Shown: positions 4,215 through 63,796 of the stretch, one piece after another | How positions within the stretch are numbered: position 1 is the stretch's first letter | Layout: the number at the start of each line of letters is the position of its first letter | Origin: a phage | Direction: 5' to 3' (one strand) | NCBI GenBank assembly: GCA_012646185.1 | Contig: GCA_012646185.1_4706.1 | DNA length: 64,000 nt | Translations under genes and position numbers: made by a program | Notes under the pieces: model-generated | Database searches by the model: none | What the model was told of the DNA's origin: nothing | Seen by the model: the letters and a program-made list of their open reading frames with translations, nothing else

Positions 4215-5099
4215 TTACGGTAGGATTTCTGCGCCCGTCGGGCCTGCCTTACGAGCTTCCAACGCACCAAGGTCGTATTTCAGCGTCAGCGTATCGTTGG
4301 TGGTATAAAGGTTGTGGTAAGTCGAAATCAGATCGGTAACCTGCGCGCCGACGATTTCGTTCATGTCGAAGGCTGAACCTTGACCATCATCAGCACGAAC
4401 GATTTTATCGCCAGCAGAGACCATCCCAATTTCAGAAATAACCGCGTACTCTTCACCACCTTCGGTGAGTTTAGCTACATTGAGATATTCGTTAATATCC
4501 CACGGCGTCCAAACCAAAGAGACTTTACAGCTGTAGTCGTAGTACTCTCCGGTTGCTACCAGAATTCCGGTTGTTGGGATATCCGGTCGGGCAGGGTTGA
4601 GGTTCGCGTCGGTTGGGTGCCATTCGATGGTCTGAGCGACGCCGTCGACGTATTTGGTATAACGCATGGAGCGGACAACGTTATCGAAATCGATCCGGCG
4701 ACCGTAATAACAGATATACTTTTTACCGCTTTCCAGTGTCTCAATACGACGTAACCCAAATTTAGCGCGTTCGTCTGTGGTCAAATCGTTACCAACTTCA
4801 CGCATTACGAAAGGCTTGATTTTCCACGGTGAAAGATCGCTTGCTTCGTGAGCGATCGGCATCGAGGAAGGGATACCGTTAGCGTTGCGGATGAATTCAT
4901 GACCTTGGTTGCCGATACAGAAGTAACGTACAGCAGGATTACCCTCGGGGTAAACCTTTGATTGAATCTGAAGTTTTTCATTCAAGGTGCTGTGTTCTTC
5001 CCATGCATGAGGAAGACCGAGCGTAAGGTTAGTTTGTACTTGACCGCCGATAATCGTACGGACGATACGATCGGTAGCACGGATTTGTGTAGAAGCCAT
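4215..5099 (-). CDS. hypothetical protein (294 aa), possible distant member of paralog family A
   Basis: ATG at 5097-5099; contains YYGRRIDFD resembling the family YYxRI motif. Confidence 0.8.
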   Translation of the reverse strand: MASTQIRATDRIVRTIIGGQVQTNLTLGLPHAWEEHSTLNEKLQIQSKVYPEGNPAVRYFCIGNQGHEFIRNANGIPSSMPIAHEASDLSPWKIKPFVMREVGNDLTTDERAKFGLRRIETLESGKKYICYYGRRIDFDNVVRSMRYTKYVDGVAQTIEWHPTDANLNPARPDIPTTGILVATGEYYDYSCKVSLVWTPWDINEYLNVAKLTEGGEEYAVISEIGMVSAGDKIVRADDGQGSAFDMNEIVGAQVTDLISTYHNLYTTNDTLTLKYDLGALEARKAGPTGAEILP

Positions 5100-5115
5100 G
5101 TCTTTTCCTATTTAA

Positions 5116-5967
5116 TCAGTTATATTGCATCAACAGGATACCGCCGTAGTTCGTGCAGTAATCTTGGCTAAGCGTAACGATAACAGCGTTAGCGAACGCA
5201 GGGTTAACCGGATAACCCTGTGCGATAAGTTCTGTTGTTTTACCGGTTGCAAGCACGGTGGCTCCGTAAAGGTTGTTTTCGTCTTCACGGCCGTTATAAA
5301 CCCATGGGGTTGGCGCAACGTTGTTGAATAAGCTAACCATTGCGCTTAAATTACCGCCAACTTTTAACCCGGCGAGATCGGAACGGATAGCCGTACAGTC
5401 TATAGCGTAACTGTAGACCAGTGCCTGGATACGATTTGCGGTGTAGTACGGGAAATTGAGGCCGGTCATCACCGTGGACTTCATCATCCCCGCAACATCG
5501 TGGGCACTATCGAGGAGATAGAACGTAACACTTCCCGTCCAAGCCAATCCGGTTGTTTTCAACTCTACGGTGTGAGGGAACGGATATTCATCACCTCGTA
5601 CAATCGGAGAATCGACGCAGCTATCCTGATCGATAACGATTCCGTACGTTGATTGAATCAGAGGGATAAGATCGTGCGTCGTTTTAACCCCAGCATCGAT
5701 AGCAAGCTTCGGTTCCATTCCCAAGAAGAAGTCTTGGATAGGGATACGATCGTACCACACGTAGCTGCTTTCACGGTATTGTGCTGGTGTTACTGTTGCC
5801 GAAGGTGATACCTTAGCGCGTGTGTTCCGTTTATACGCGTGGTTTCCGTTTTCAGCAACATCCGTGATATCAAGTGCATCGAAGTTAAAGTCGAAGTCAG
5901 GATTGGCTGCCTGAATAAGTTCAGCGACCAGTACTTTAGGACTTTTGTTTAACAATTTCTGACTCAT
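5116..5967 (-). CDS. hypothetical protein, paralog family A (283 aa)
   Basis: ATG at 5965-5967 with AAGGAA ribosome-binding site; motifs VWYDRIP, STYGIVID, LAWTGSV, DYCTNYGGILLMQYN. Confidence 0.85.
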   Translation of the reverse strand: MSQKLLNKSPKVLVAELIQAANPDFDFNFDALDITDVAENGNHAYKRNTRAKVSPSATVTPAQYRESSYVWYDRIPIQDFFLGMEPKLAIDAGVKTTHDLIPLIQSTYGIVIDQDSCVDSPIVRGDEYPFPHTVELKTTGLAWTGSVTFYLLDSAHDVAGMMKSTVMTGLNFPYYTANRIQALVYSYAIDCTAIRSDLAGLKVGGNLSAMVSLFNNVAPTPWVYNGREDENNLYGATVLATGKTTELIAQGYPVNPAFANAVIVTLSQDYCTNYGGILLMQYN

Positions 5968-15303: not shown

Positions 15304-17100
15304 TCAATCGATTATGTCGTGATCGTTAATTTCTACAATTTCTTCATCGAATCGACCGACGTCTTTCTTCAAGCCTGCATTGGTTGCTGCAACGTCATTT
15401 GCAATTTGTGGGGTAATGATTAACCGACCGCGCTCATCGATAGGTGCGTACATACTGAACTTCTGACGTCCGGTTGGTTCGGAGTGTGGAAGATTCAGAT
15501 AGCTTGCACAGAACGGGATGGAACCACTAACCAAACGACTCTCGTCAGCCAATGCAGCACCGCCTGCGTTTTGGCTCTGGAGAACAACATGCGTGCTCAC
15601 TTTGAACAGCATGCAATCACCAGGTGACTGAATCGATGTTGCCACTTTCTCACGTTTATCACGATTGCTCTGGATATTGAGAATCGCTTCCGTTGCAACT
15701 TGATTTCGCAACGCCTTCTGTACATCGCGATTGGTCATCTCTTTACGGTTGTTCTGTCGTTTACCACGTTCTGTGGTTTTAAGATGGAACCCCAGTTTAA
15801 AGATGCTCTTACGCACATCCTCCATGACATATTCCAACACCATCAATTCCTTACCGAACATCGTCGTGGTGTCAACACGACTCATTTCGATAGTGACATT
15901 GTCAATCAGATACGCCATAAATTCATAGAAGTCGTCGCAAGGAATATTTTCCTGTTTGAACTTCTTCTGCTGAATTTCGTCAACGTAAAGATCGAGACTG
16001 TCGATGTGGTGGTTTACATCACGCAACAAACGCGCATCCGCATTGTTGTTATTAAAGATAATCAAACCGAGTAATGTACGCCAATGGTCTGGCGCATTCG
16101 CGAACTCTTCAACCGGATAGTCTTCCGGAAAACGATCGTAATAACGGTCGATGAGATACAAGAATGCACCGACAAGGCCAAGAACAATACGTTCCGTGCC
16201 TCCACGTCTTACAGCAATTTGAATATCAGGATGTTTGTAACGTACAGCGCTAGCGCTACGGCTTTTACCGCTTTTGCTGATACTAAAGCCTTTAGGAATA
16301 ACCCCCATGGTGCGATAGATTACCCATTGGTCACGCGGAAAATCACGTTCAGCAAGGTTCCGTCCGGTTACGGCTTCGACACCTGCAAAACGTCGGAAAC
16401 ACTCACCCACCCCGTACTTCGCAAAGAGATAGTGACCCAGTGTGGTTACGCTGGTGTGGTTGATGTTGTCACCGTTCACTTTACTTTGTTTAGTAAGATG
16501 ATAGATTTGCGACCAGGGTAATGACAGGTAATGACGATAATCGATACCGGTCGGTGTATCGTTGCTCAGGAACTGATACGGTGTACGTTTAACCGTGATT
16601 TTGTCACGCGGAAGCATGATGAACGCCATGTCTTTCGTGTAACTGATTACGGGGTCAGCGAGTACCGCACTGAGAATGAAGTTCGCACCACGTAGACGCA
16701 TTTTACCACCCTGACCTACCGCGGGTAATAGGAGAGGATGTCGGATAATGCAGTAGTCCTTTCCGGGTTCACGACGGTCACCTGATTCCATCGCGCCGTA
16801 CCAGCGGAATTCTAGCATCACCATAAACACATCGGAAGGCGCAAGGTCGAAGGTCAGCTTACCGCTATCCTTCCCTTTGGTTTTCTTTCCTCCGCTTAAG
16901 TAGTGGAACTGTTCGCGGGCCATACAGCGACGCAGGCCATGATACACCAGATCCTTAGGTAAACTATCTTTGCTGTTCCGCCAAAGACGATCAACATAGG
17001 ACTCAACATCTTGCATCTTATCGACGACGATGTTGCGTGCTATCTTCTCGTTCATCTTCGGTGCAAGCTCAGCGACAGCTTTGCAGAATCTAGGATCCAT
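15304..17100 (-). CDS. hypothetical protein (~598 aa), start moved to ATG at 17098-17100
   Basis: Track start GTG at 17103; adjacent ATG has AAAGGAG ribosome-binding site 6 nt upstream. Confidence 0.8.
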   Translation of the reverse strand: MDPRFCKAVAELAPKMNEKIARNIVVDKMQDVESYVDRLWRNSKDSLPKDLVYHGLRRCMAREQFHYLSGGKKTKGKDSGKLTFDLAPSDVFMVMLEFRWYGAMESGDRREPGKDYCIIRHPLLLPAVGQGGKMRLRGANFILSAVLADPVISYTKDMAFIMLPRDKITVKRTPYQFLSNDTPTGIDYRHYLSLPWSQIYHLTKQSKVNGDNINHTSVTTLGHYLFAKYGVGECFRRFAGVEAVTGRNLAERDFPRDQWVIYRTMGVIPKGFSISKSGKSRSASAVRYKHPDIQIAVRRGGTERIVLGLVGAFLYLIDRYYDRFPEDYPVEEFANAPDHWRTLLGLIIFNNNNADARLLRDVNHHIDSLDLYVDEIQQKKFKQENIPCDDFYEFMAYLIDNVTIEMSRVDTTTMFGKELMVLEYVMEDVRKSIFKLGFHLKTTERGKRQNNRKEMTNRDVQKALRNQVATEAILNIQSNRDKREKVATSIQSPGDCMLFKVSTHVVLQSQNAGGAALADESRLVSGSIPFCASYLNLPHSEPTGRQKFSMYAPIDERGRLIITPQIANDVAATNAGLKKDVGRFDEEIVEINDHDIID

Positions 17101-17139
17101 CACACACTCCTTTCAGAAAGTTGCTTAAGCAGATTAAAG

Positions 17140-18814: not shown

Positions 18815-18913
18815 CTGACTTATGTATCACGGTGCCGGATGAATGTCCGGTGCAATGAAACCATCCGCAACGTTGTCGTCAAGAATATCGTCCAACGAAG
18901 CAGCTACGGTAGT

Positions 18914-21136
18914 TCAGTTAGTCTGAACCGGCAGCTTGATGTTTTCAGTGTAGACCTTACGCAGGTTCACAACGTTAATCAGACCCAGCAGCGGGCAGTT
19001 GTTAACGAAGCGGCAGCGCGGCTGAACCATGGTTTCTTTAGAAACCTGACCGTTACGGGTAACCTGAGCAACAGATACCAGTTCCGGTACATACAGGAAC
19101 ATACCGAAGGTCAGCGGATCCGGAGAACCCTGGATACCACGAGACAGGGTCACGAAGATCTTATCGCGCAGCATGACGTTCGGGTTATCTACAACCACGA
19201 AGTTGAAGCTTACACCAACGGTACGGAAATCGCCATCGGTCTGCAGGAACTGCGGGATGTAGTTGTCAGTTGCTACTACGCAACGCGGTTTCTCATCAGC
19301 GTTGGAAGACAGCAGCTGCAGAGCTGGCTGATAACCAGACTCGGAGTACATGCGGTATGCCATCTCACGAATCACGTTCATGATCGCAGCAGACACTTCA
19401 GCACGACGTTCTGCAGTGGTGGTACCCTGAACAGATTTCTCCAGGTCCAGATTGATTTCTTCGAACCACGGACGGATCAGGTAACGACCGAAACCTTCGA
19501 TCTGGATGTCGCCGAACTGACGGAAGCGAGAGGTCGCAACCGCTTTCAGTGCGTCTTTGTAGCTGAACAGTTTCTCAACCATCAGGTTGTCGAAACGTGC
19601 GTTAGCAGCTTGGATCAGAACGTCCAGGTCAGCAGCGTTTTCTTCCCAATCCAGCGGACGAGGAATGGAGAACGGAGCCAGCAGGCCGATTGCGTAACGT
19701 TCTTGCTTCATGTTGAAGTCAAGGTGCTTACCGCGCTCACGACGGTTGCTGTTGTTACGGCGGATACGCAGTTCGTAACCAACCAGTTTGAAGCTCAGGT
19801 CTTCAGCCAGCTGTTTGAACTCTTCGCCCTTACGCGGTTGTTCGATGTTGTCACGATCGACCAGACGATACAGTTCAGCGTTAGCGCCGTTAACACGCAG
19901 ACCGGCTTTCTCTACGTTGGAAGAACCGTAAACTTCGATTGCCAGCTGAGCAGCGGATTTCGAATCGATGATGTCCTGCAGCGCTTCAGCTCGTGCACCT
20001 TTAACGTCAACGGTGTTCTCATCAACGAAGATGGAGTGGGTGTCGAACGCCAGGGTCATTTTGCGGAAGTCGCCTTCCAGGGATTTCTGGAAACCGTTGG
20101 TGATCAGACCAGATACGTCGAACGGTACGTAAGAGGTTTTGCTGTGCTTGGTAGATTTGATTTCCACCAGGATTTTGGTCAGCGTGATCTGGGCGTCCAG
20201 CGCGTCGGTGTTGTCGCTGTAACCGTTAGCCAGGATGCTATCGTCTTCAGCGATACCGATCATGTCGATCAGTTTATCAACAGCCAGGTAAGACGTTTTA
20301 TAAGTTACGCCTTTAATTTCGATGTCGCGCGGAGCAACGATAGCTTTGTCAACGAAGTACTGTGCGTTAGCATCGTCAGCACGATAGATCGGATGCAGAT
20401 CGGTCACGTCGTTGGACAGAACGTCGTTGTACATGAACGCATCCAGCAGCGGACGACGTACCCAATCAGCCGGAGTACCGTCAGCGTTACGACGCAGGTG
20501 GTTGAACACCAGCGGACGACGGAAAGATACGTCGTAACCGATCTGGTTCGGAGCCAGAACGATGGTGTTGTACAGTTCGTTACCCATGCGGCTCAGACGA
20601 GAAGCCTTCACGTTGAACACAACGGAGTACGGCATCATGTCACGCAGTTCTTTCTGGTCGTAGGACAGCTGAACCAGTTCTTCAGATTCGCAACCGCAGG
20701 AATCAGCAGCCATCATGACGAAGTTAGAGCTGTCAACTTCACGGCCAGACGGAGTGGTGCTGATGTTCATGGAACGTGCTTGTTTAGCATATTCCACCGG
20801 GTTACCATGAGCCAGCATGATCAGTGCTGCTGCACGAGCCTGCTGTGCGTTCATGGTGAACAGCTGTTCTTCAATACGCTGCTTCTCTTCCGGAGTGGTG
20901 GTTTCGAAGCCCAGCATGGACAGAACCGGTTCTTCGGCTTTACGGATGTCGCTGCTGAAGCTCTTAACATCCATTTCGTTAACCAGTTTGTCCATGGATT
21001 TGAAATCAACCTTAGAAGCAGATTCCATAGACAGGAAGGTGTTCTCCAGACCTTTGTCTGCTGGTTTGCTACCATTAGCGGTCAGGAACTGGCGAGTGGC
21101 CGCGACCTGTTGGCTAAGAAGGGTTTTATCATTCAT
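18914..21136 (-). CDS. putative major capsid protein (740 aa)
   Basis: ATG at 21134-21136 with AAAGGA ribosome-binding site; length close to the ~750-aa capsid proteins of phiKZ-like phages (recollection, not verified); strong host-like codon bias; own terminator. Confidence 0.55.
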   Translation of the reverse strand: MNDKTLLSQQVAATRQFLTANGSKPADKGLENTFLSMESASKVDFKSMDKLVNEMDVKSFSSDIRKAEEPVLSMLGFETTTPEEKQRIEEQLFTMNAQQARAAALIMLAHGNPVEYAKQARSMNISTTPSGREVDSSNFVMMAADSCGCESEELVQLSYDQKELRDMMPYSVVFNVKASRLSRMGNELYNTIVLAPNQIGYDVSFRRPLVFNHLRRNADGTPADWVRRPLLDAFMYNDVLSNDVTDLHPIYRADDANAQYFVDKAIVAPRDIEIKGVTYKTSYLAVDKLIDMIGIAEDDSILANGYSDNTDALDAQITLTKILVEIKSTKHSKTSYVPFDVSGLITNGFQKSLEGDFRKMTLAFDTHSIFVDENTVDVKGARAEALQDIIDSKSAAQLAIEVYGSSNVEKAGLRVNGANAELYRLVDRDNIEQPRKGEEFKQLAEDLSFKLVGYELRIRRNNSNRRERGKHLDFNMKQERYAIGLLAPFSIPRPLDWEENAADLDVLIQAANARFDNLMVEKLFSYKDALKAVATSRFRQFGDIQIEGFGRYLIRPWFEEINLDLEKSVQGTTTAERRAEVSAAIMNVIREMAYRMYSESGYQPALQLLSSNADEKPRCVVATDNYIPQFLQTDGDFRTVGVSFNFVVVDNPNVMLRDKIFVTLSRGIQGSPDPLTFGMFLYVPELVSVAQVTRNGQVSKETMVQPRCRFVNNCPLLGLINVVNLRKVYTENIKLPVQTN

Positions 21137-21285
21137 TGAAAGTATCCTTTACAGAATTAACTTATATAAGTCGGTCGATAGACCATAGCGTACACGCGTG
21201 CATGCGCCACTATAGTATCAGTAAACACTTACCGTTATTGAGGTCGTGATACAACACTAAAAATGCCGCATAACTTTTCCCTACG

Positions 21286-54481: not shown

Positions 54482-55792
54482 TTACGCGACGACAGAGTCG
54501 AGTTTCGCTGACACTTTGAACAGATCGTTGTTCATTGTGGAAGAAAGGACTTGTTGAATTTCTTCCTGTTTAACGGCTTTACGAACCCCAGGACGAAGGA
54601 TAAGCGTAACCATCTGTGAAAAGGTACGATTATTGTTCATCGCACTCAGCGTTTCATCGATTGTTTTGATGGTATCCAGCGTCATGGAACGAACATCGCT
54701 TGGGATATCACGATCTTTCAAGCGTATAATTAAATCTTGTTTGATTTTACGGAATCGTTCCATGTCGTTATCGTAAATGCTGTATGTTGGATCTAACCAA
54801 ACAGAAAGCGCGGTTACGGCCACAACAACCAACACACCGATAGCGCCAACAGAAGCTAAACCTATCGCCATCATAGAGGCTATAGTAGCATCCATGATGA
54901 AGGAGAGCCAGAACATCGTTTTGGACTTCATGGAGTTGGTGCCATAAAGCCGATACATTTTAGCAAGCCCGCTAACGAGATACTCCCCACTACCGTGACG
55001 CGTAGCGAACTGATCAGCCATGAATTCGGAAGCAACGTCAGTGTATCGACCAGCATTGTTTACATTTCGTAACTGCATTGCTCTGTTAGACACGTAAACC
55101 GTGTACCAGACACTACCATCGTCTGAATCACTGATTTTGTCTACGTCAACGTTGGTATCCAACGTTTTGTTTAACGCTTTCGCCAGTTCGATACGTTTTA
55201 CCTTATCGGTTGTTCCCAACAGTTCACGCTGTACGGTCATGATCGAGGCTTCGACACGAACCGTTTCTGATAATGTTTCAAGGAAAGTAAATGCGTGCCC
55301 GATTTCATGCAGCATTATGGCTGCTTTTTCTTCCGGAAGAAAGGGTTCTGTCGCTGTTAGCAGTTCATACGTGATGGCAGAACGAATCTTCAACTCCTCA
55401 AAGATACCGTAAACACGACCTTTTTCTAAATCGACGTAACCGACAGGTGCATCTTTAATCTTCTTAAGGAGTGCGACACCATCAGCACCACGCATCCATA
55501 ACCGATGATAGTCCGCCAGGATCGTGTTGTTTGTCGAAATATCCGGTGGGTACACGTAGGCGTTCATCTGGCCCATTTTCATGTCGACCGAGAATTCGAT
55601 GTTCAACCCCGTATAGCGTTTAACCATCTCGGTTAAACGACCGTCCTTGAAAACGTTTAAAACCTCTTTTTTATCCAGTCCCTGTTTGCTTCTGAAGAAC
55701 TCGGTCATTTCCTTGAACAAGGAACCATCTTGAAACTTGATGGCTTCCATCGTTAATTCGTCATGACCATACACGCGTTGTAGTAATGACAT
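54482..55792 (-). CDS. putative zinc metallopeptidase (HExxH) with hydrophobic membrane segment (436 aa)
   Basis: MLHEIGHAF motif with Glu residues downstream; ~40-aa hydrophobic stretch FWLSFIMDATIASMMAIGLASVGAIGVLVVVAVTALSVWL. Confidence 0.8.
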   Translation of the reverse strand: MSLLQRVYGHDELTMEAIKFQDGSLFKEMTEFFRSKQGLDKKEVLNVFKDGRLTEMVKRYTGLNIEFSVDMKMGQMNAYVYPPDISTNNTILADYHRLWMRGADGVALLKKIKDAPVGYVDLEKGRVYGIFEELKIRSAITYELLTATEPFLPEEKAAIMLHEIGHAFTFLETLSETVRVEASIMTVQRELLGTTDKVKRIELAKALNKTLDTNVDVDKISDSDDGSVWYTVYVSNRAMQLRNVNNAGRYTDVASEFMADQFATRHGSGEYLVSGLAKMYRLYGTNSMKSKTMFWLSFIMDATIASMMAIGLASVGAIGVLVVVAVTALSVWLDPTYSIYDNDMERFRKIKQDLIIRLKDRDIPSDVRSMTLDTIKTIDETLSAMNNNRTFSQMVTLILRPGVRKAVKQEEIQQVLSSTMNNDLFKVSAKLDSVVA

Positions 55793-55803
55793 TGTACACT
55801 CTC

Positions 55804-55821
55804 TAAATTTACGTAAATTTA
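55804..55821. promoter_or_regulatory. perfect 18-bp palindrome TAAATTTACGTAAATTTA in divergent intergenic region
   Basis: 12 nt upstream of the metallopeptidase start codon, inside the 220-nt gap before the polymerase gene; operator or leader hairpin. Confidence 0.35.
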
Positions 55822-56013
55822 AGGGCTAATGGATCGGCTGGCCGCACCAATCACAATGTGTCCGCTGCTATGCAACGGCATTCATAGAAATACCTTTTGA
55901 CGGTAACATCACCCATCACACCCCAAGCAATAAGAGTGGTCGGTTAAAAACAACAGAACGTGGGGATGATATAGAAAATCACCTTTTAACACTTATTACG
56001 AGTTTATCAAGCC

Positions 56014-57513
56014 ATGAGCGAACAAGAACGAAAACCTAAGAAGAAACTGCTCGGTATTCAATGTCGACACATCAGCTATAACGAAGCGAACGACGGCAGC
56101 AAGAACGACCTCATGATCGCAAAAGAGATCATGTTCTTTGATGACAATACGCAAGCGACGAACCTTCGCTTCTTTGAGAATTACAAACGTCCGTTTTGGG
56201 TGACGGTAGAGAGTAAACGTAAGAACAAATATAAAAAGGAAAGCGAGAAGCTCTCGCATGTGCGTCGCTATGATGTCCGCCAAAGTGAACTGGTTGAAAA
56301 GATCAGTTCGGTGCTTTATAAAAGACGTGCTGACGATAACACCCGTTTACAGCAGCTTGCACGGAGTCCATACCTCTACGGCACGGACGTTAGCGCCAGC
56401 TGTTATTTAAAAACCCAGTACAACACAAAATGGCCGGAATACGTCGATAAATTACCCGCTTCCATTGCCTGTTTCGATATCGAAACCGACGTTGTCCATG
56501 GACATGGTAAGATCGTTTGTATGTCTATTACAATGGGATACAATGCGATACTTTGCTATACCAAGGACTTCGTTGGTCATATTCCGAATGCGATTGAGAA
56601 AACCCATGAGAAGATTCGATATTACCTGGCCGAACGTCTGAATACCAAAGAAGATCCTCATGCGTTCGAAAAATATCAGTACGATGTGCGAATCGTAGAA
56701 AGTCCGGCACAAGCAGTCATCCAATGCATGCAGAAGGTTCACGAATGGCAGCCGGATTATCTCCTTGGCTGGAATATCGCGTTCGATATTCCGCGCATGC
56801 TCCAGGCACTGAACGAGGAAGGGTATCGTCCCGAGGATGTTTTCTCCGATCCTCGTGTACCCCCTAAGTATCGTATTGCTCGCTGGGTACCACCGAAGAC
56901 CGACAAGGTATCTGCTTCAGGCCGTAAAACCAACCTTACCCTCGAGCAGACCTGGCCGATGTTTTATACGATGGCTACGTATCAGGTTATGGATGCGATG
57001 TGTGGTTATAAGTTCGTTCGTTTAGGAAGACCGGATGAGGGACGCTATTCACTCGATGCGGTGTTAGAGCGTAATAAATGCCATACGAAATTAAAAGCGA
57101 TTCCTGGTACAGAAGGGTTCACGGAGCTCGCCTGGCACGAAGAGATGCAAACGAACCATCAAATCGACTACGGCGTATATAACCTTTGGGATAACCAAGG
57201 TATTGAGGCGTTGGACCAGAAAACAAAAGACTATTCGATGACCATCCCGATTCGTTTAGCGGCGTCGGATTTGAAAGATTTCAGTTCCAACCCTAAACGT
57301 ATCTGCGATAAACTTTTCTTCGTGTATCTTAACCGTGGGGAAGTCATGGGATGCACCGCCGACGACATGACCCAGGAAGAAGATAAGTGGGTTATCTCAC
57401 GAACCGGACATATCGTCACATTACCATGCGATCTCATGGCGGACAACGGCATTCATCTCTTCTGGGATATGCCTAATTTAAGGAGCTATATTCGATTATT
57501 TGTTGCGGATTAA
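56014..57513 (+). CDS. family-B DNA polymerase, N-terminal/3'-5' exonuclease part (5' exon plus read-through to in-intron stop)
   Basis: Exo I FDIETD, Exo II GWNIAFDIP, Exo III YNLWD in T4-like order and spacing; no polymerase motifs A/B/C; ORF ends at the start of the intron region. Confidence 0.75.
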   Translation: MSEQERKPKKKLLGIQCRHISYNEANDGSKNDLMIAKEIMFFDDNTQATNLRFFENYKRPFWVTVESKRKNKYKKESEKLSHVRRYDVRQSELVEKISSVLYKRRADDNTRLQQLARSPYLYGTDVSASCYLKTQYNTKWPEYVDKLPASIACFDIETDVVHGHGKIVCMSITMGYNAILCYTKDFVGHIPNAIEKTHEKIRYYLAERLNTKEDPHAFEKYQYDVRIVESPAQAVIQCMQKVHEWQPDYLLGWNIAFDIPRMLQALNEEGYRPEDVFSDPRVPPKYRIARWVPPKTDKVSASGRKTNLTLEQTWPMFYTMATYQVMDAMCGYKFVRLGRPDEGRYSLDAVLERNKCHTKLKAIPGTEGFTELAWHEEMQTNHQIDYGVYNLWDNQGIEALDQKTKDYSMTIPIRLAASDLKDFSSNPKRICDKLFFVYLNRGEVMGCTADDMTQEEDKWVISRTGHIVTLPCDLMADNGIHLFWDMPNLRSYIRLFVAD

Positions 57514-57606
57514 CCTTCGTTCTGTAAAAACTTACCGATATATAGAAATTACTGTGAGATACCAAAGGTACTCGTAAGTTTAGTAATTTCTGAGCGGTAG
57601 GTAAAT

Positions 57607-58743
57607 ATGTTGGAACATCTTGAACATTTAGACAATGAATACTTAAATTTCACCAATCGTCGTTATCGTATCTTCGAAGACGGTACACTTTACGATTACA
57701 AAGAGAATTGTAAAGTACCTGTTATAATAGAAGATAACAACTCTTACGTTATTATCGATTGGTATCGTGGGGTTGGTAAATACGAATTGGGGATGATCAT
57801 GCTTACAGCATTTGATCGCATCCACATTCCTAACTATCTTTACGATGAAATTGAATCGTTGTTTATTGATAACGACCCGACGAACTTTTCGTATAGTAAC
57901 CACATCTATCGTTTCCGTAATGGACCGCTGGCTGTGGAAGGGTATCCGGGATATTACTACATCCCGTTTGCCACGTACTATGCGCTAAATGAACAAGGTG
58001 AATGTTTAAGTCTTTTGTCTGGGGAAGGTATAACGTGGACAATGACGCAGCAAAACGGTACGCGGCGTCCCGGCTATCGATACAGAAAGGTAACACCTGA
58101 TAGCGGTTTTACGGCTCAGCTGTATCGTCATCGAGCGATGATGTTGACGTTTCGTCGTTACGACGCAAGCGTTGTGGAAATGACCGTTAATCACAAGAAC
58201 GGTATTAAAGGCGATGATTGGCTGGATAACCTGGAATGGGCAACCTACAAGGAAAACAACAATCATGCGCGTATAAACGGTTTATGTGACGGCAAAGCGA
58301 AACCTATCAAGATCTTTGATTATAATCGTCATACCGAACGTCATTTCAAGAGCATCGCTGAGGCGGAACGTGCGTATCCACACGTAGCAAAAGGACGTTT
58401 CAAATGGTGGGTTGAAAATCCACCGAAACGTATACCTGAATGTAACCTCTACATCAAACATGCGTTCGATAATACTCCGTGGCCTGAATGGAAACTGGGT
58501 GATGAACGACGTATTGAAGATGTAGCGGGTATTCCGATTATCGCCCTTAACATGGTTACAGGCGAGAAACGAGTGTATTCATCGGTTACAGCTGCGGGTA
58601 AGGATACGAAAACAAGTTGGATAACAGTACGACGTCACTGTGATAAGCGTGTCGTTCCTGTTAAACAAGCATGGTGTTTCCGTTATGCTGACGACGTCAA
58701 AAACATGCCTGAGTTAACTTCCCTACCAACAATCGAACAGTAA
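57607..58743 (+). CDS. HNH homing endonuclease (378 aa)
   Basis: ATG start; motif VNHKNGIKGDDWLDNLEWATYKENNNHA (His-Asn-His); located inside the intron. Confidence 0.8.
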   Translation: MLEHLEHLDNEYLNFTNRRYRIFEDGTLYDYKENCKVPVIIEDNNSYVIIDWYRGVGKYELGMIMLTAFDRIHIPNYLYDEIESLFIDNDPTNFSYSNHIYRFRNGPLAVEGYPGYYYIPFATYYALNEQGECLSLLSGEGITWTMTQQNGTRRPGYRYRKVTPDSGFTAQLYRHRAMMLTFRRYDASVVEMTVNHKNGIKGDDWLDNLEWATYKENNNHARINGLCDGKAKPIKIFDYNRHTERHFKSIAEAERAYPHVAKGRFKWWVENPPKRIPECNLYIKHAFDNTPWPEWKLGDERRIEDVAGIPIIALNMVTGEKRVYSSVTAAGKDTKTSWITVRRHCDKRVVPVKQAWCFRYADDVKNMPELTSLPTIEQ

Positions 58744-59254
58744 CGATAACAGGTCCCCCTACTTGTAATGAGTGGGTGAACTCTCTTTAATTGCTGGAAA
58801 CCTTTAATGCCCCTCCACACCACAACGCAATCCGAAAGGGTAAACGTGATGGTTGTCGAAAGACAGAAAAAAGTTGGAGGGGATTACCTAAGCTGAAATA
58901 AAAGCCGTTACTTTCTGGATATGGAAAGAGTCTAACGGTGCTAAGGGTCCTGCTAGAAATAAGGTAACCGTAGCAGCGAAGACCCTACGGACTGTCGTGA
59001 CCGACTCGATGAGTTGGCGTGGTTAACACGGACAGGCTACGGGTAACGTTCAACGACCATCCGGTTGCGCGGAGTAGGAGAATTAGGATGTTCTCCGAAA
59101 AGGGAGAAGTCGGTCGAGGTGTTGTAGAAACACCGTTGCTTTGCTTCGCAAACATAAGACAGGCTAAGATATGGTCTATATTAAATGTAATACTATGATG
59201 TATAGAATTTAATGGCTCGATATTAGCAGTTCATATCCAAATGGGCAGATCCTG
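58744..59254 (+). ncRNA. group I intron catalytic core (3' portion)
   Basis: Region aligns by eye to T4 td intron: CTTGTAAT...GGGTGAACTCTCT...AATTGCTGG then R and S elements; no protein-coding capacity. Confidence 0.55.
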
Positions 59255-59470
59255 TTGAATCTATCCAGAGCATGTGTTTTTCGTGAGCTCTCACGCATTG
59301 AGGGCGTCTCTGACTACCAATTCAGGAAGCTAGGTATCAACTTTATTACCGGAGGTAAAACGAACGCTGTAGACTTCTGTAGAATCGTTTATAAAGCACC
59401 ATCGATGTTTGAGCTCTTAGAACATTTCGATGCGACGCGTCCAAAAGAGGAAGCGCGGACCATCGAATGA
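59255..59470 (+). CDS. possible 3' exon of the polymerase-exonuclease gene (frame open from 59213), or small independent ORF
   Basis: ORF follows directly after the intron core; track start is TTG; terminator hairpin downstream. Confidence 0.3.
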   Translation: MNLSRACVFRELSRIEGVSDYQFRKLGINFITGGKTNAVDFCRIVYKAPSMFELLEHFDATRPKEEARTIE

Positions 59471-59519
59471 TTCAAGTAGGTTGATCCTCGTTTAACAAAA
59501 AAGAAAACACATGCGAAGC

Positions 59520-59549
59520 TCCTCCCCCTGGCGGAAGCCGGAGGGAGGG
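59520..59549. terminator. hairpin with GGAA loop, terminator between convergent genes
   Basis: CTCCTCCCCCTGGC-GGAA-GCCGGAGGGAGGG with one mismatch; U-rich on the minus side. Confidence 0.6.
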
Positions 59550-59556
59550 GTGAGGT

Positions 59557-60042
59557 TTATGCGCGTTCGTTACCAACCGTTACTTTGTAGTCAGCGTCGG
59601 TTAAGAATATAGACAGGAATCCATGTTCTTTGCAAATCTGACTAAGGATGTCAGCAATGATTTCGTTGATCATCGGCTTGTTTGCAAGGGCATAGATGTA
59701 CCCGGGTGTAAAAGAAAGTGCGTGATTGATCATAGGCTCATGAGAAGCCAAGATAAGGATCACGTGATGCTTCCCATCGTCGGTAACGACCGCTTGCGTA
59801 GACACGAAGAAATCAGTGAAGCAGCAGCGATCACAGGCTTTAGGTATATACAAGTCACCCAGAGCTTCGTTACGTGCTTTTACGTGTGTTTCAGGGGTGA
59901 TGCTGCTAAGTTGATCTTCAGCGAGATCCAAGACATCCTCAATCGTTTTAAGAATAGCGTTGCGGAAATCCTCACGGTAGAATGGGATGATATCACGATC
60001 GTTCATGTAATCGCCGGATTCGATAGTAAAGTTGATGTTCAT
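59557..60042 (-). CDS. hypothetical protein (161 aa)
   Basis: ATG at 60040-60042. Confidence 0.8.
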   Translation of the reverse strand: MNINFTIESGDYMNDRDIIPFYREDFRNAILKTIEDVLDLAEDQLSSITPETHVKARNEALGDLYIPKACDRCCFTDFFVSTQAVVTDDGKHHVILILASHEPMINHALSFTPGYIYALANKPMINEIIADILSQICKEHGFLSIFLTDADYKVTVGNERA

Positions 60043-60152
60043 TGAATGCTCCTAGTGGTTATGTCGATTGATTGATGTATTGATTTATGTTTGATGGGGT
60101 ATACTTGAAACTACAAATAAGGCTCTTGGCGTTGCTGTTATGGTTCAGTTCT

Positions 60153-60605
60153 TTATCCCTTGTTGGATTCGTCAATATACTTGGTGTCGTAAGACAAATG
60201 CTGAATTAATTTTCTAGGTCTGATGAATATACGACATGTGATAAACACATCAGGATTGTATTGTTCCACGCAACGTCCGAAGGCTCGTTTTGCGGCGTGA
60301 CGCATCAACACTAATTCCCGATCGTTCATCTCATCATCAAATTCGATGTGTATCGTGATTTTATCGGGAAATAAATAGATAGAGTAATCGCCACCAATAC
60401 CGCCGTCGTCAAAACGATAATCGTTGTGGTAATGGTGAAGTTTACCTTCGTGTATCGTCTGGTACCACCCGACGTTACTATCAAGGCCCATACCCAGGCG
60501 TCCGAATGCCTGATTAATAATATCTTCGACGACGGATGCGGGTGTGGGGCCATTGAACAATCTATCCAGACGTTTTTTCATCGATTTGTCGTTTTTCATG
60601 TTCAT
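60153..60605 (-). CDS. hypothetical protein (150 aa)
   Basis: ATG at 60603-60605 with CAGGAAAAG ribosome-binding site. Confidence 0.8.
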   Translation of the reverse strand: MNMKNDKSMKKRLDRLFNGPTPASVVEDIINQAFGRLGMGLDSNVGWYQTIHEGKLHHYHNDYRFDDGGIGGDYSIYLFPDKITIHIEFDDEMNDRELVLMRHAAKRAFGRCVEQYNPDVFITCRIFIRPRKLIQHLSYDTKYIDESNKG

Positions 60606-60633
60606 TGTTTCTTTTCCTGTGTAGTCGGTATAC

Positions 60634-60669
60634 AGCCCTTCCCCGGCCTTGGTGGCTAGGGAAGGGGCT
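60634..60669 (-). terminator. hairpin AGCCCTTCCCC...GGGAAGGGGCT
   Basis: Between the stop of the 60681 gene and the start of the 60153 gene; one bulge. Confidence 0.5.
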
Positions 60670-60680
60670 ATGCTACGTTG

Positions 60681-61079
60681 TTATGCTTCGCAATCAGCTG
60701 AAGGCGTCGCGCCTTTCTTACCGGCGATACGCCAAATCCGACACGCTGGGTAATGGTTAACCTCTAGAGAGCAAGGAATGTTATATTTCTCTTCCAGCGC
60801 ATAAAGACATTTCGTTAGCTGCTCCAGCGCGTTCTCGTCGTGTCGTAACGCGTGGTGGCCTAATCGATGTTGGTCGTTCTTTATATACGCCTCGAAGAGA
60901 ACATGTTGGCGATGTACGCTGACGTTTACAGCCTCGAGTATAGCTTGGTCGAGCATACGACTAAAGCACATCAACGAGTCAGATACGTTTTCTCGCTTAA
61001 CCAGATCGATCATGGCGGGAATATACGAATGGTCGATGTTATCGATGACCGCTTTAGCGACGGAATCAGCAACGTTCAT
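60681..61079 (-). CDS. hypothetical protein, small paralog pair C (132 aa)
   Basis: ATG at 61077-61079; shares KAVxDNIDH, MIDxxKxE, EEKYNIPxSLEVN with the 61115 gene. Confidence 0.8.
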   Translation of the reverse strand: MNVADSVAKAVIDNIDHSYIPAMIDLVKRENVSDSLMCFSRMLDQAILEAVNVSVHRQHVLFEAYIKNDQHRLGHHALRHDENALEQLTKCLYALEEKYNIPCSLEVNHYPACRIWRIAGKKGATPSADCEA

Positions 61080-61114
61080 CTTTTAATCCCTAGTTTGTTA
61101 TTGATCACGTATAT

Positions 61115-61510
61115 TTACTCTTTGACGTCAGTTGTCGTTTCGACATGCTTCTCACTACTGACGTACCAGAGCAGGTACGCTGGGAAAAGATTGACCTCTA
61201 AGCTAAATGGGATATTGTATTTCTCTTCCATTTTACAGAGATGTTCTTTAAGTAAATTTCTCGCGTCTCTGTCACCACGAACAGAGTGCCAGTCTAGTTC
61301 TTTGTTCTCCTTTACCAGGACCTCTACGATGATACGTTGCTCGTGAACCTCGGTTTTCACAGTGAAAAGTAAATCGCTGCTATCAAAACGGGTAAAACGA
61401 ATGTATGAACCAGGTGTTTTTTCTTGTTTAATAATATCGATCATGGTAGAAATGCGCGGATGATCGATGTTGTCGTTAACAGCTTTAACGATGGATTCTA
61501 CAATGCTCAT
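61115..61510 (-). CDS. hypothetical protein, small paralog pair C (131 aa)
   Basis: ATG at 61508-61510 with AAGGA ribosome-binding site. Confidence 0.8.
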   Translation of the reverse strand: MSIVESIVKAVNDNIDHPRISTMIDIIKQEKTPGSYIRFTRFDSSDLLFTVKTEVHEQRIIVEVLVKENKELDWHSVRGDRDARNLLKEHLCKMEEKYNIPFSLEVNLFPAYLLWYVSSEKHVETTTDVKE

Positions 61511-61605
61511 TTTTTATCCTTAATGTTATCGATATTGACGAGTTCATCAATACGGCACTGTTGGTTGAATTCGATTAATCGTTGAACTTTATCTTTGATA
61601 GACAT
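61507..61605 (-). CDS. possible 32-aa ORF (MSIKDKVQRLIEFNQQCRIDELVNIDNIKDKK), translationally coupled
   Basis: ATG 2 nt after the upstream stop; its TGA overlaps the ATG of the 61115 gene; GAAGGAG upstream. Below the ORF-track size cut-off. Confidence 0.3.
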   Translation of the reverse strand: MSIKDKVQRLIEFNQQCRIDELVNIDNIKDKK

Positions 61606-61607
61606 GA

Positions 61608-62066
61608 TTACCCATTAGCTCCTTCTTCGTCTGGAGAGTACTCCATTGTGTAGAATTCATAACCATCGGAAAACTTGAGTGTTAATGTAATAGGGAAATC
61701 GCACGGCGTAGCTGATTTCGTAAATGCGTTATTAGCAACATCTGCCAACCGACGTATAGCATCAGTCCCGCTGACGCTGAATGGTAGTTGTATGTTGATA
61801 AGGATACGATGCTTGTAAACATAGAAAACAACGGTACTGTCAAGATAGACGCTATGGAACGGTATTGTTGGGATGCGTTCCACGATGGTAAAATACGTCC
61901 CGTCATTATCGCTATGTCCCACCGACCAAATATCGGATTTGCGTAGATTTTGTTTGAGAGATTCGATGCTTCGAGTGACGGTATCAGCAACAGGCGTGAC
62001 GTAAGCGTCTTTATGCGAGTCGAAAAGTTCGTTGACGTTAGATTCGAATGAAAACGTTGTTGCCAT
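61608..62066 (-). CDS. hypothetical protein, small paralog pair D (152 aa)
   Basis: ATG at 62064-62066; C-terminal region resembles the 62132 gene (PITLTLKFSDGYEFY vs PVILTINGHDGSGLFEF). Confidence 0.8.
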   Translation of the reverse strand: MATTFSFESNVNELFDSHKDAYVTPVADTVTRSIESLKQNLRKSDIWSVGHSDNDGTYFTIVERIPTIPFHSVYLDSTVVFYVYKHRILINIQLPFSVSGTDAIRRLADVANNAFTKSATPCDFPITLTLKFSDGYEFYTMEYSPDEEGANG

Positions 62067-62091
62067 TTTCTACCTCAATGGTTTAACCGAT

Positions 62092-62118
62092 ACGTGCCCC
62101 ACCTAACAAGGGACACGT
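62092..62118 (-). terminator. hairpin ACGTGCCCC-acctaacaa-GGGACACGT
   Basis: One mismatch; sits between two minus-strand genes. Confidence 0.35.
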
Positions 62119-62131
62119 TATCGTTGATTAA

Positions 62132-62626
62132 TTACTCTTCTGTGTTTTCATTGTCGGGATCGTAGTGGAATTCGAACAGCCCTGAACCGTCGTGCCCGTT
62201 GATTGTTAGTATAACGGGCATATCGAATCCTCGGACACGCGAATGAAAACACTGTGCTAATTTGAGTTTGGCGTATGCCGCTATTTCATTGACAGCAATA
62301 CACGATTCACCTGTTATACTCAGTATAACGTCGATACTAACAATGTTGTCGTGCAACGCAAAACGCCAGCGATCGATACGATTATTATCTTTATCGGTTG
62401 TCTCGTTTACGAGATAGACTTTATCGTCAACCGACAAAGCGGGACTCCAGCAACGATCGTTTATTAAATTCGCCTGGAGTTTTAGTATCGTCTGATCGAT
62501 AATATCCCAACACGTAACCAGCGTGGTGTCAGGCACTGAGTAGAGAAGGGCGTGCACTTTATCCTTTATTTTAAGTGCTTCCGCAGGACGTCCGCAAATA
62601 CCATGCATTTCAACTTTCTTATTCAT
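62132..62626 (-). CDS. hypothetical protein, small paralog pair D (~164 aa), start moved to ATG at 62624-62626
   Basis: Track start GTG at 62632; ATG two codons later follows a purine-rich AGAAAGAAG. Confidence 0.75.
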   Translation of the reverse strand: MNKKVEMHGICGRPAEALKIKDKVHALLYSVPDTTLVTCWDIIDQTILKLQANLINDRCWSPALSVDDKVYLVNETTDKDNNRIDRWRFALHDNIVSIDVILSITGESCIAVNEIAAYAKLKLAQCFHSRVRGFDMPVILTINGHDGSGLFEFHYDPDNENTEE

Positions 62627-62669
62627 ATTCACTTCTTTCTTAATCTAAATGTTAGTTGGGGTGGAATGC

Positions 62670-63272
62670 TTACATGCTTTCTAACATATCGATGATCATG
62701 GAACCCATACCGAAACTCGGTCTTTCACCGATGTACTCAGCAAGCTGGCGATGGACGTCTTTTGGATTTCCTTCTTCACCATCGGCATCGATGTAGACCG
62801 AAAAAGAAAATGAATCGGAATCCACGCTGATAACCAGACGACGTTCATTGCGTTCCTTGAGCGTGTCGACGATAGCTGCTTTCAGTACTGCGATCGCGTT
62901 CATCGCGTGCAAGATATCTCCATCGGGTTTCGGCAGATCGATCTTTTCTTTCAGGTCGATATTGATGTTGGTTACAATTGGGTTGAGGTCGACCTTGACG
63001 TAATCGTTAGGGTACATGCGAATAATCGCACGATCGATATCTGAACCGTAAAAGTCAACACGTGGCTTTAACACTTCTTTGTTTGGATCCATGTTTTCAT
63101 CCATACCCGCCTGCAAGAAACGTTCTACGTTATCCAGTTCACGATAAACTGACGCTTCGATTTCTTTCAGATAGTTGGCTGCGGTTTCATGTTCTTTACG
63201 CAGCTCGTCTTTAAGGAGCTGTACGGTGACTTCACTGGAACGAATGCTGTTCGCGAATTGGGTAATTGACAT
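62670..63272 (-). CDS. hypothetical protein (~200 aa), start moved to ATG at 63270-63272
   Basis: Track start TTG at 63302; ATG at 63272 has AAGGAA ribosome-binding site 6 nt upstream. Confidence 0.75.
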   Translation of the reverse strand: MSITQFANSIRSSEVTVQLLKDELRKEHETAANYLKEIEASVYRELDNVERFLQAGMDENMDPNKEVLKPRVDFYGSDIDRAIIRMYPNDYVKVDLNPIVTNINIDLKEKIDLPKPDGDILHAMNAIAVLKAAIVDTLKERNERRLVISVDSDSFSFSVYIDADGEEGNPKDVHRQLAEYIGERPSFGMGSMIIDMLESM

Positions 63273-63327
63273 ATCGAATTCCTTAAATTCTCTTGAGTTC
63301 AATTAATGATGAAAAGCTGTAAAAAAA

Positions 63328-63345
63328 GGTGGGGCGAACCCCACC
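63328..63345 (-). terminator. intrinsic terminator GGTGGGG-CGAA-CCCCACC with U7 tract on minus strand
   Basis: A7 on plus strand immediately 5' of the hairpin; downstream of the 63371 gene. Confidence 0.8.
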
Positions 63346-63370
63346 AAAACGTCAGACACACGCAGGAAAA

Positions 63371-63796
63371 TTAATTCAGTGACGCATATAACGCATAACG
63401 ACTGTAGATCTCAACCGCCGGTCCGTTATGCGTTAACAGACCATCCCGGTTGTAATACTGGAAAAATGAATAACGTTTGTCGAAGTGATAAACAAAAGCA
63501 ATGTCTTTGCTGCCAAGACCTGTGATGCGTGGTCTGTTTTTATCTAACAGCGCTTTGACTTTTAACAGTGTTGCCGCACGTGCTTTAACGTTAGGGATTA
63601 ATCCATCACAATCGATATAAACTGTGTAACCTGTTTCAGATGTTGCGACGGTCGTATTGCGATTGACGCGGAAGATTTTTGTTTCGTATGTACTATCTTC
63701 AAGAATTGGGTTTTGTTTTTCGTATTTTCGTTTACGCAGAAATTCTACAACGGTGATATAGTTAGCGGTAATATGCCCGGTTATAGCTTGTAACAT
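63371..63796 (-). CDS. hypothetical protein (141 aa)
   Basis: ATG at 63794-63796 with AAAGGA ribosome-binding site; conserved upstream element. Confidence 0.8.
   Translation of the reverse strand: MLQAITGHITANYITVVEFLRKRKYEKQNPILEDSTYETKIFRVNRNTTVATSETGYTVYIDCDGLIPNVKARAATLLKVKALLDKNRPRITGLGSKDIAFVYHFDKRYSFFQYYNRDGLLTHNGPAVEIYSRYALYASLN

Follow-up and report, generated by a model that had tools for sequence, protein, structure and literature searches.

The DNA polymerase of PhiKZ-type phages was predicted in 2011 to be a family B enzyme (PolB) that is split into an exonuclease chain and a polymerase chain (PMC3201878). This division was restated in later work (PMC5105663; PMC7824862), in the second instance with the exonuclease described as a 'standalone protein' (Iyer et al. 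2021). As given in the abstracts of two preprints of October 2026, DNAP-N and DNAP-C of PhiKZ form a stable 1:1 complex, which was determined by cryogenic electron microscopy at 2.1 Å (Basu et al., PMC13648687), and the polymerase of Escherichia phage vB_EcoM_Goslar (hereafter Goslar) is composed of DNAPN-DNAPC-Rhc (Rani et al., PMC13648698). The present analysis deals with a locus of this kind on a phage DNA of 64,000 nucleotides (NCBI GenBank assembly GCA_012646185.1, contig GCA_012646185.1_4706.1), the whole of which is referred to as the window. Positions 56014 to 59470 of the window are interpreted, with a probability of about 0.88, as the gene for DNAP-N, the N-terminal subunit of the split family B replicative polymerase of a chimallivirus, into which a mobile group I intron has been inserted between the codons of D499 and L500, that is, within polymerase motif A.

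The closest relatives of this gene are the DNAP-N genes of PhiKZ and Goslar, which are its orthologues, have the same virion-protein neighbour, and are likewise accompanied by a separate partner gene; the older literature calls the encoded chain 'the exonuclease'. A predicted group I intron interrupts the gene in the present phage and in Goslar. In the single-chain gp43 polymerases of T4 and RB69, the N-terminal and exonuclease fold is the same, and the motifs Exo I to Exo III and motif A follow each other collinearly at similar spacing. In contrast to gp43, the chain encoded in the window ends about 80 residues after motif A, with the fingers, motifs B and C, and the thumb located on another protein, and DNAP-C has about 190 all-helical residues inserted between motifs B and C. 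A family B catalytic core built from two chains is also found in Methanothermobacter thermautotrophicus, where the break is near motif C, at a position that is an intein site in relatives, whereas the chimallivirus break would lie just after motif A.

Group I introns with nicking HNH endonucleases of the I-HmuI/I-BasI type are known from the DNA polymerase genes of the phages SPO1/SP82 and Bastille (PMC12908238, PMC11620839). These introns, too, are located in a conserved active-site region of the gene and encode an HNH plus NUMOD endonuclease, and in the HMU phage introns the core is conserved while the open reading frame (ORF) is divergent, as is the case in the window intron. The differences are that the host gene in the window is the N-terminal subunit gene of a split PolB of a nucleus-forming phage, and that the ORF is situated upstream of the ribozyme core, apparently in the loop of P1. 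Within the chimalliviruses, the intron endonuclease gp210 of PhiPA3, encoded in an RNA polymerase (RNAP) gene, hinders PhiKZ in co-infections (Birkholz et al. 2024, PMC11620839). Both cases have in common the virus family, a group I intron with an HNH endonuclease in an essential polymerase gene, and coexisting intron-plus and intron-minus relatives; the target is, however, a DNA polymerase subunit rather than the virion RNAP. The core finding is a known system, namely, a split polymerase subunit combined with a known type of mobile intron. The additions to it are modest: an unannotated intron together with a public annotation that is too short, a chain break mapped just after motif A, and an intron insertion hotspot at motif A.

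Gene Structure and Splice Junction

The gene is composed of the following parts.

56014 to 57510, plus strand: DNAP-N exon 1, codons 1-499, encoding the N-terminal domain, the 3′-5′ exonuclease domain, and the strand that leads up to motif A, and ending in ...LFVAD499; an ORF whose end is set by the intronless allele L013
57511 to 59215, plus strand: predicted group I intron of 1705 nt, delimited by comparison with L013, with U57510 just ahead of the 5′ splice site and G59215 as its terminal (omega) G
59216 to 59470, plus strand: DNAP-N exon 2, codons 500-583 and stop, encoding motif A and a C-terminal helical segment; family profile match E=5e-26

In the window, the ORF at 56014-57513 encodes 499 amino acids and is followed on the same strand by a 378-amino acid ORF (57607-58743) and by a frame that is open from 59213 to 59470. 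The last of these contains the 84 codons of exon 2 and has no start codon ahead of TTG at 59255, which lies downstream of motif A. For the comparison with other phages, the two outer frames were fused to a joined product of 583 amino acids and searched by tblastn against a phage collection. Matches were obtained in 299 phage records, with coverage of at least 80% at a single genome place in 288 of them. The uninterrupted orthologue is one annotated coding sequence (CDS) of 585-638 amino acids in FLC1-1B, pVa-21, Noxifer, SPN3US, SL2, and PhiEaH1, and alignment of these proteins with the window frames places the junction at ...YIRLFVAD/LDISSSYPNG... (the slash marks the insertion site). Full-length identity to the proteins of PhiKZ, SPN3US, the EL group, and Erwinia phages is 29-39%.

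The junction is most directly seen in intronless relatives. A protein of 583 amino acids from a 237-kb ENA metagenome contig (P0001) reads LFVAD/LDISSSYPNG without interruption and differs from the joined product by two substitutions in 583 residues, both in exon 1; the junction and the exon 2 protein are identical. With this near-identical intronless protein as the query, phrog_3011 ('DNA polymerase') was matched with E 1e-177 over residues 8-576 of 583. At the DNA level, the intronless locus L013 aligns with the window to position 57506 and again from 59216, and because it is collinear through 57510 and resumes at 59216, the limits of the intron are set at 57511 and 59215. The uninterrupted insertion site of L013 has the sequence GTTGCAGAC followed directly by CTTGACATTAGC, and the tryptic peptide LFVADLDISSSYPNGQILLNLSR would be present only in the spliced product. 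Excision would restore the reading frame, and a U at position -1 together with a G as the last base of the intron are the canonical group I boundaries.

Both exons bear the marks of one conserved gene. Exon 1 encodes a protein with 96.5% identity to Goslar gp068, and its family profile match has E=2e-187; in exon 2, the codon changes are 10 synonymous and 0 nonsynonymous in comparison with the intronless allele, and 12 and 0, respectively, in comparison with Goslar. These codons show purifying selection on exon 2, which belongs to the translated sequence of a working gene.

Exonuclease Motifs and Motif A in the Predicted Spliced Product

Conservation in DNAP-N was evaluated on an alignment of 83 full-length homologues with a mean identity of about 36%, in which the following motifs were recognized.

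56476 to 56484, plus strand: Exo I, FD155-I-E157-TD; D155 and E157 invariant in the 83 homologues, aligned to RB69 FDIEV
56773 to 56787, plus strand: Exo II, WN254-IAF-D258-IP; N254 invariant and D258 nearly so, aligned to RB69/T4 WN..FD.P
57178 to 57192, plus strand: Exo III, Y389-NLW-D393; Y389 and D393 invariant, aligned to RB69 YISYNIID
59216 to 59239, plus strand: polymerase motif A, L500-D501-I-S-S-S-Y506-P507; D501, Y506, and P507 invariant, aligned to RB69 and T4

Exo I (DxE), Exo II (Nx2-3FD), and Exo III (Yx3D) are thus found in order on an N-terminal plus RNase H-like exonuclease fold, as in family B exonucleases. The AlphaFold2 (AF2) model of DNAP-N has a mean predicted local distance difference test score (pLDDT) of 88.4 and is very confident to about residue 460, and its best matches in the PDB by Foldseek are RB69/T4 gp43, with E 4e-13 over about 455 aligned columns. 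Single-sequence phmmer searches of the PDB returned nothing for either DNAP-N or DNAP-C, for which homologue profiles were needed. In Noxifer (L005) and SL2 (L007, PhiKZ group), DNAP-N has an extra 55-60 residues or so between Exo II and Exo III (alignment columns 394-460), a segment that is not seen in the Goslar-like, Vibrio, Salmonella, and Erwinia phages; it is probably the cause of the two-piece tblastn matches of the PhiKZ group.

The intron is inserted within motif A, two codons upstream of D501. The residue just before it, D499 (57508-57510), is as invariant in the 83 homologues as are D501, Y506, and P507. By hhalign, DNAP-N and T4 gp43 are joined in one contiguous alignment (T4 residues 138-431, 96.1% probability, E 3e-9) that runs through the FDLTSLYPS of T4. 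The DNAP-N profile matches RB69 gp43 in HMMER with E 9e-6 in three collinear stretches, which correspond to Exo I/II, Exo III, and motif A; in the last of these, 'rahvaDlDvsssYPngeivlniskett' pairs with RB69 residues 404-430. The pattern DxxSxYP has a single match in a long open frame within the window, which is that of exon 2. From these alignments, the spliced product would carry the motif A of family B polymerases (DxxSLYPS) and would therefore be more than an exonuclease half.

An earlier, sequence-only reading of the locus had described a family B polymerase present only as its exonuclease half. Much of it stands: the three exonuclease motifs are present, with their residues conserved and aligned to RB69/T4; the 3′ exon, then putative, is real, as seen from its profile match and from P0001; the length given for the joined product, roughly 570 amino acids, is close to 583; and the structure prediction it had proposed for that product leads to gp43. 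In the profile check, for which it had suggested the Pfam domains PF03104 (exonuclease) and PF00136 (polymerase), among the raw ORFs the 499-amino acid one scores 16.4 against a cut-off of 23 for PF03104, the exonuclease domain alone being detected, and no polymerase domain is seen by Pfam in the 20 largest ORFs of the window. The statement that motifs A, B, and C are missing holds for B and C and fails for A, where AD/LDISSSYPN is aligned to T4. The reading had itself named a polymerase motif in the spliced product as the observation that would speak against it, and motif A is such a motif; with its Asp and Tyr-Pro in the spliced product, the description as an exonuclease half has to be given up, the break being located after motif A.

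Partner Chain and Position of the Chain Break

Motifs B (KxxxNSxYG) and C (YGDTDS) were found neither in the spliced product nor elsewhere in the 64-kb window, and a DNAP-C gene was not found in the window by Pfam on the 20 largest ORFs, by tblastn, or by a hidden Markov model (HMM) of 78 homologues run against the six-frame translation. In Goslar, a second 'DNA polymerase', gp244 (174314-176467, 717 amino acids), is encoded adjoining the chimallin gene at a distance of about 95 kb from gp068; its match to PF20286 ('divergent family B DNA polymerase') has E 2e-204. Of the two possibilities named in the sequence-only reading for the polymerase part, a separate gene is thus the one that applies, outside the window; its absence is excluded for the family by the co-occurrence of both chains in about 300 phage genomes. 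The genus counts of DNAP-N and DNAP-C are identical (Pseudomonas 81, Erwinia 62, Salmonella 24, Vibrio 23, Serratia 21, Aeromonas 20, Klebsiella 16, Ralstonia 13, Bacillus 9).

Across the 78 DNAP-C sequences, the invariant residues of gp244 are R122, K126, K152/N156/G160 (motif B, K152xxxN156SxxG160), D405-T-D407-S (motif C), K469, E471, K484, and Y486; there is no invariant Asp upstream of motif C among them. The gp244 profile aligns with RB69 only from residue 437 on, where it covers the hairpin, the fingers, motif B, and then the KKRY region; with T4, it aligns across motif C and KKRY. In the AF2 model of gp244 (pLDDT 91.6), two long finger helices come first, an insert made up of helices only occupies about residues 206-395, and the motif C hairpin follows; the best PDB matches are again RB69/T4 gp43.

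These data bear on the assignment made by Kazlauskas & Venclovas in 2011, in which both active-site Asp residues are on the polymerase chain and the Asp of motif A is D229 of phage EL (PMC3201878). In EL gp021, D398 sits in SDTD398A, which is motif C. D229 of EL corresponds to D221 of Goslar, a position that is Asp in 47 of the 78 sequences (60%) and lies within the all-helical insert. The poor conservation of D221/D229 and its place in a helical insert argue against a motif A Asp on the polymerase chain. From the profile comparisons, a chain break right behind motif A, in the area of T4/RB69 residues 431-437, is better supported than one between the exonuclease and polymerase domains. The so-called exonuclease chain would then bear the first palm strand with motif A, which fits an obligate 1:1 two-chain enzyme. 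As to the third subunit of the 2026 preprints, Rhc (RNase H-clamp), Goslar gp190 (NC_048170 233087-234613), annotated as 'ribonuclease' with an RNase HI domain and located outside the window, is probably this protein, judged by its annotation.

The Intron and Its Endonuclease

Within the intron, the following elements were recognized.

57511 to 57513, plus strand: in-frame TAA at the intron start, by which translation of unspliced RNA would be stopped at 499 amino acids
57607 to 58743, plus strand: I-HmuI-like HNH/NUMOD1 homing endonuclease gene, 378 amino acids (Pfam HNH_3, NUMOD1)
58705 to 59196, plus strand: putative ribozyme core (P2/P3-P9), Rfam RF00028
58753 to 58758, plus strand: candidate internal guide sequence GUCCCC, from a pairing scan with exon GGAU and U.G at the splice site

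The RF00028 match (42.5 bits; E 8e-9 locally, or 2e-7 when the entire window is searched) is the only one of its kind in the window; the Goslar copy of the intron scores 44.7 bits. The endonuclease ORF, whose own ATG starts 96 nt downstream of the intron-opening stop, exceeds the Pfam cut-offs for HNH_3 (25.7 against 24.8) and NUMOD1 (32.9 against 22.8), matches phrog_59 'HNH endonuclease' with E 4e-17, and has a weak match to I-HmuI (1u3e, E 0.05). The GUCCCC segment is invariant in Goslar and is found again immediately behind the ORFs at another homologue locus (L015), whose intron is divergent in other respects. If the GUCC at 58753-58756 pairs with exon GGAU, the endonuclease ORF would be located in the P1 loop, which is a tentative assignment.

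In Goslar, this site is occupied by the same intron, 1762 nt in length (NC_048170 81187-82948). Its first 60 bases and its ribozyme core are near-identical to those of the window, the conservation of the core beginning at about 58743. For the endonuclease ORF, megablast finds no alignment between the two, and the protein is 68% identical to Goslar gp069, in comparison with the 96.5% of exon 1. In both Goslar records (GenBank and RefSeq), DNAP-N is a CDS of 499 amino acids (gp068, 79690-81189) that closes at the intronic stop, and the intron and exon 2 (to about 83203) are unannotated. Two other group I introns are annotated in Goslar (169269-169645 and 211817-212245), both in RNAP genes and each beside an HNH gene. 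A 'gp068' expressed or modelled from the Goslar records would be a short subunit devoid of an invariant Asp of motif A.

Motif A as a Target of Intron Insertion

Intron-plus and intron-minus alleles coexist, the former in the window and Goslar and the latter in L013. Along the gene, they differ by 0-6 (mostly 0-4) nt per 60 nt. This number rises to 11 immediately 5′ of the insertion site and, in comparisons involving Goslar, to 13-17 immediately 3′ of it, with zero amino acid change in these flanks. Clustered synonymous change at the insertion site is the pattern that would be expected of co-conversion or of target-site divergence, and endonuclease-driven homing would explain it. The window (59222-59233) and the intronless allele share AGC-AGT-TCA as the Ser-Ser-Ser codons of motif A, and Goslar has TCT-TCA-AGC (L001, 6480-6491); such a switch between serine codon families requires several changes per codon. 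The sequences suggest that the 3′ flank of the Goslar intron either came from a different donor or was recoded under pressure from the endonuclease.

Other homologues are interrupted in the same region. Of the best 120 homologue clusters, 19 stop inside motif A, at ...VAD, ...ADLD, or ...ADLDV with a few more residues, and three interrupted loci (L015, L016, and L017) were inspected. L015 is interrupted at the same AD/LD position with the same junction, GCGGAT/TAAC, and its exon 2 starts with LDVSAAYP; the insert contains an HNH ORF, a second ORF, and a weak group I match. The metagenomic locus L016 has an insert of about 420 nt after ADLD (4980-5397) which is devoid of an ORF and has no Rfam match at E<0.001; this insert could be an intron without an ORF or one of an atypical kind. 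L017 is broken a few codons later, a group I match begins at the break, and an HNH gene is found on the opposite strand; the exon 2 of this allele was looked for and not found. Compared in this way, motif A of DNAP-N is a recurrent target of mobile introns, which have entered at three or more positions. A preference of phage mobile introns for conserved active-site codons has been described (PMC12908238). Three further DNAP-N homologues (P0094, P0104, and P0113) stop some 35 residues short of motif A, at ...GH(x)(x)WI..; these ends could represent a second interruption site or contig ends.

Proposed Mechanism and Alternative Explanations

In the proposed scenario, the group I intron would splice itself out of the transcript, from which the 583-amino acid DNAP-N would be translated. 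This chain would form a 1:1 complex with DNAP-C, in which the palm would be built from both chains. DNAP-N would supply proofreading and the first palm strand, in which Asp501 would bind metal and Tyr506 is aligned to the conserved tyrosine of motif A; from DNAP-C would come the fingers, including motif B, the palm hairpin, including motif C (Asp405/Asp407), and the thumb. Neither chain alone would be a polymerase. Unspliced RNA would yield a 499-amino acid protein without motif A, ended by the TAA that opens the intron. The HNH/NUMOD1 enzyme would nick or cut intronless alleles at the motif A codons, and the intron would be spread by recombinational repair.

Several points weigh against the interpretation as a split polymerase subunit with an intron in motif A. 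Splicing was deduced from sequence. The RF00028 score of 42.5 is below the gathering score of 50, and the P1 candidates (57519-57522 and 58753-58756) comprise just 4 bp each, neither of them being supported by covariation, because the Goslar copy is too similar and the L015 copy too different. In HMMER, the motif A stretch alone contributes only 1.2 bits, so that its weight comes from collinearity and from hhalign. The pLDDT of the AF2 model is below 50 at residues 499-514 and 45-90 across the tail, so that the model does not show how the motif A segment folds; low values at 499-514 are as expected if this segment is a palm strand plus helix that needs the other subunit. DNAP-C was seen in Goslar and relatives, and was looked for and not found in the 64-kb window of the present phage. 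Finally, the abstracts of the two 2026 preprints (PMC13648687, PMC13648698) are silent on which chain bears motif A.

A first alternative is a stand-alone accessory 3′-5′ exonuclease, loosely bound to a complete polymerase encoded elsewhere, in which DxxSxYP would be a noncatalytic relic. This is an unlikely explanation, even though Pfam detects the exonuclease domain alone and below its cut-off, Iyer et al. 2021 write of a 'standalone protein', the 2011 paper put both active-site Asp residues on the polymerase chain, and the tail of the AF2 model is of low confidence. A relic would drift, whereas D499, D501, Y506, and P507 are invariant in 83 sequences of about 36% identity. In DNAP-C, on the other side, no Asp ahead of motif C is invariant, the candidate of 2011 being 60% conserved and placed in a helical insert, and the DNAP-C profile meets RB69 only from residue 437. 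Mobile introns typically target constrained codons, and motif A has been struck at three or more positions; in PhiKZ, moreover, DNAP-N and DNAP-C form a stable 1:1 core complex according to the preprint abstract.

The remaining alternatives accept the gene and dispute the intron. A gene broken by insertion of the endonuclease, with no splicing, a 499-amino acid protein as the only product, and exon 2 as a decaying remnant, would agree with both Goslar records, in which a 499-amino acid CDS is given and nothing is annotated over exon 2, and also with the Rfam score below gathering. It is nevertheless highly improbable in view of an exon 2 with 0 nonsynonymous against 10-12 synonymous changes and a profile match of E 5e-26, a ribozyme core that is nearly invariant in comparison with Goslar while the endonuclease has diverged to 68%, the canonical boundaries with U at -1 and a terminal G, and the presence of this core replication gene in about 300 genomes. 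Barely credible is an insert that is not an RNA intron, be it an intein or a free-standing endonuclease gene between separately translated genes of 499 and about 84 amino acids. Inteins with an HNH endonuclease have been reported in PolB genes of jumbo phages (MIJ3), and free-standing HNH genes are common in phages. For an intein, there is no continuous frame, as a stop follows directly after D499 and the HNH ORF begins with its own ATG 96 nt further on; for a free-standing gene, the first start of the exon 2 frame, TTG 59255, is past the invariant motif A residues; and the HNH gene is separated from exon 2 by a group I ribozyme core.

Taking the element as a mobile group I intron in the DNAP-N gene, it is conceivable, albeit rather doubtful, that its endonuclease, like gp210 of PhiPA3, is a weapon in co-infections of Goslar-like phages, which would nick the intronless motif A codons of rivals and thereby disable their replicase. 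If this were true, the recoding of the flanks and the rapid divergence of the endonuclease (68% against 96.5% for the exon) would record an arms race at the motif A site. It is less likely still that the efficiency of splicing sets the ratio of full-length DNAP-N to the 499-amino acid form, which would lack motif A and keep the exonuclease. With its repeated intron insertions, motif A of DNAP-N provides a second natural system, after the RNAP intron of PhiPA3, for the study of competition by intron endonucleases in nucleus-forming phages.

Genomic Context

In the phage collection, Goslar is the sole match of region 55800-59600 (two pieces that cover 68% of the query with 95.4% identity), and the window is approximately collinear with Goslar 23.7-87.7 kb. 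The genes in the window include those for a major capsid protein of the PhiKZ type, a divergent DnaB-like helicase, a homologue of the non-virion RNAP (nvRNAP) subunit PhiKZ gp123, and PhiKZ-type internal head and head-tail proteins. On account of the Goslar match and of these PhiKZ-type capsid, helicase, nvRNAP, and head genes, the window is assigned to a Goslar-like E. coli chimallivirus, that is, a PhiKZ-like, nucleus-forming jumbo phage. Upstream of the DNAP-N gene and divergently transcribed, a virion structural protein is encoded at 54482-55792 on the minus strand (phrog_2767 match), and the same layout is found in FLC1-1B, pVa-21, Noxifer, SPN3US, and PhiEaH1.

Two other places in the window were considered as possible parts of a DNA polymerase and rejected. 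The gene at 15304-17103 (minus strand), with the PHROG name 'polymerase', encodes the nvRNAP subunit homologous to PhiKZ gp123 (PDB 7ogp_E, E 6e-41); its homologue is named merely 'polymerase' in the Goslar RefSeq record and in PHROGs and is easily confused with the missing DNA polymerase half. The string '..VFSDTDH..' at 20252, taken as a candidate for motif C, falls in a 766-amino acid open frame (18839-21139, plus strand) that runs antisense to nearly the whole major capsid gene (18914-21136, minus strand; PhiKZ_MCP, E 5e-216). This frame is most likely a shadow ORF, as it has no Pfam match and a translation of low-complexity look.

As had been noted in the sequence-only reading, the genes downstream of the locus are on the opposite strand, every ORF past 59470 being on the minus strand. 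Directly downstream of the polymerase gene, at 59557-63796, there are eight small ORFs of 131-210 amino acids, the first of which (59557-60042) has no PHROG match. The Goslar counterpart of this run is annotated as the hypothetical proteins gp070-gp075. At least two neighbouring members, 60681-61079 and 61115-61510, can be recognized by eye as clear paralogues (...NDNIDH..., ...EEKYNIP.SLEVN...).

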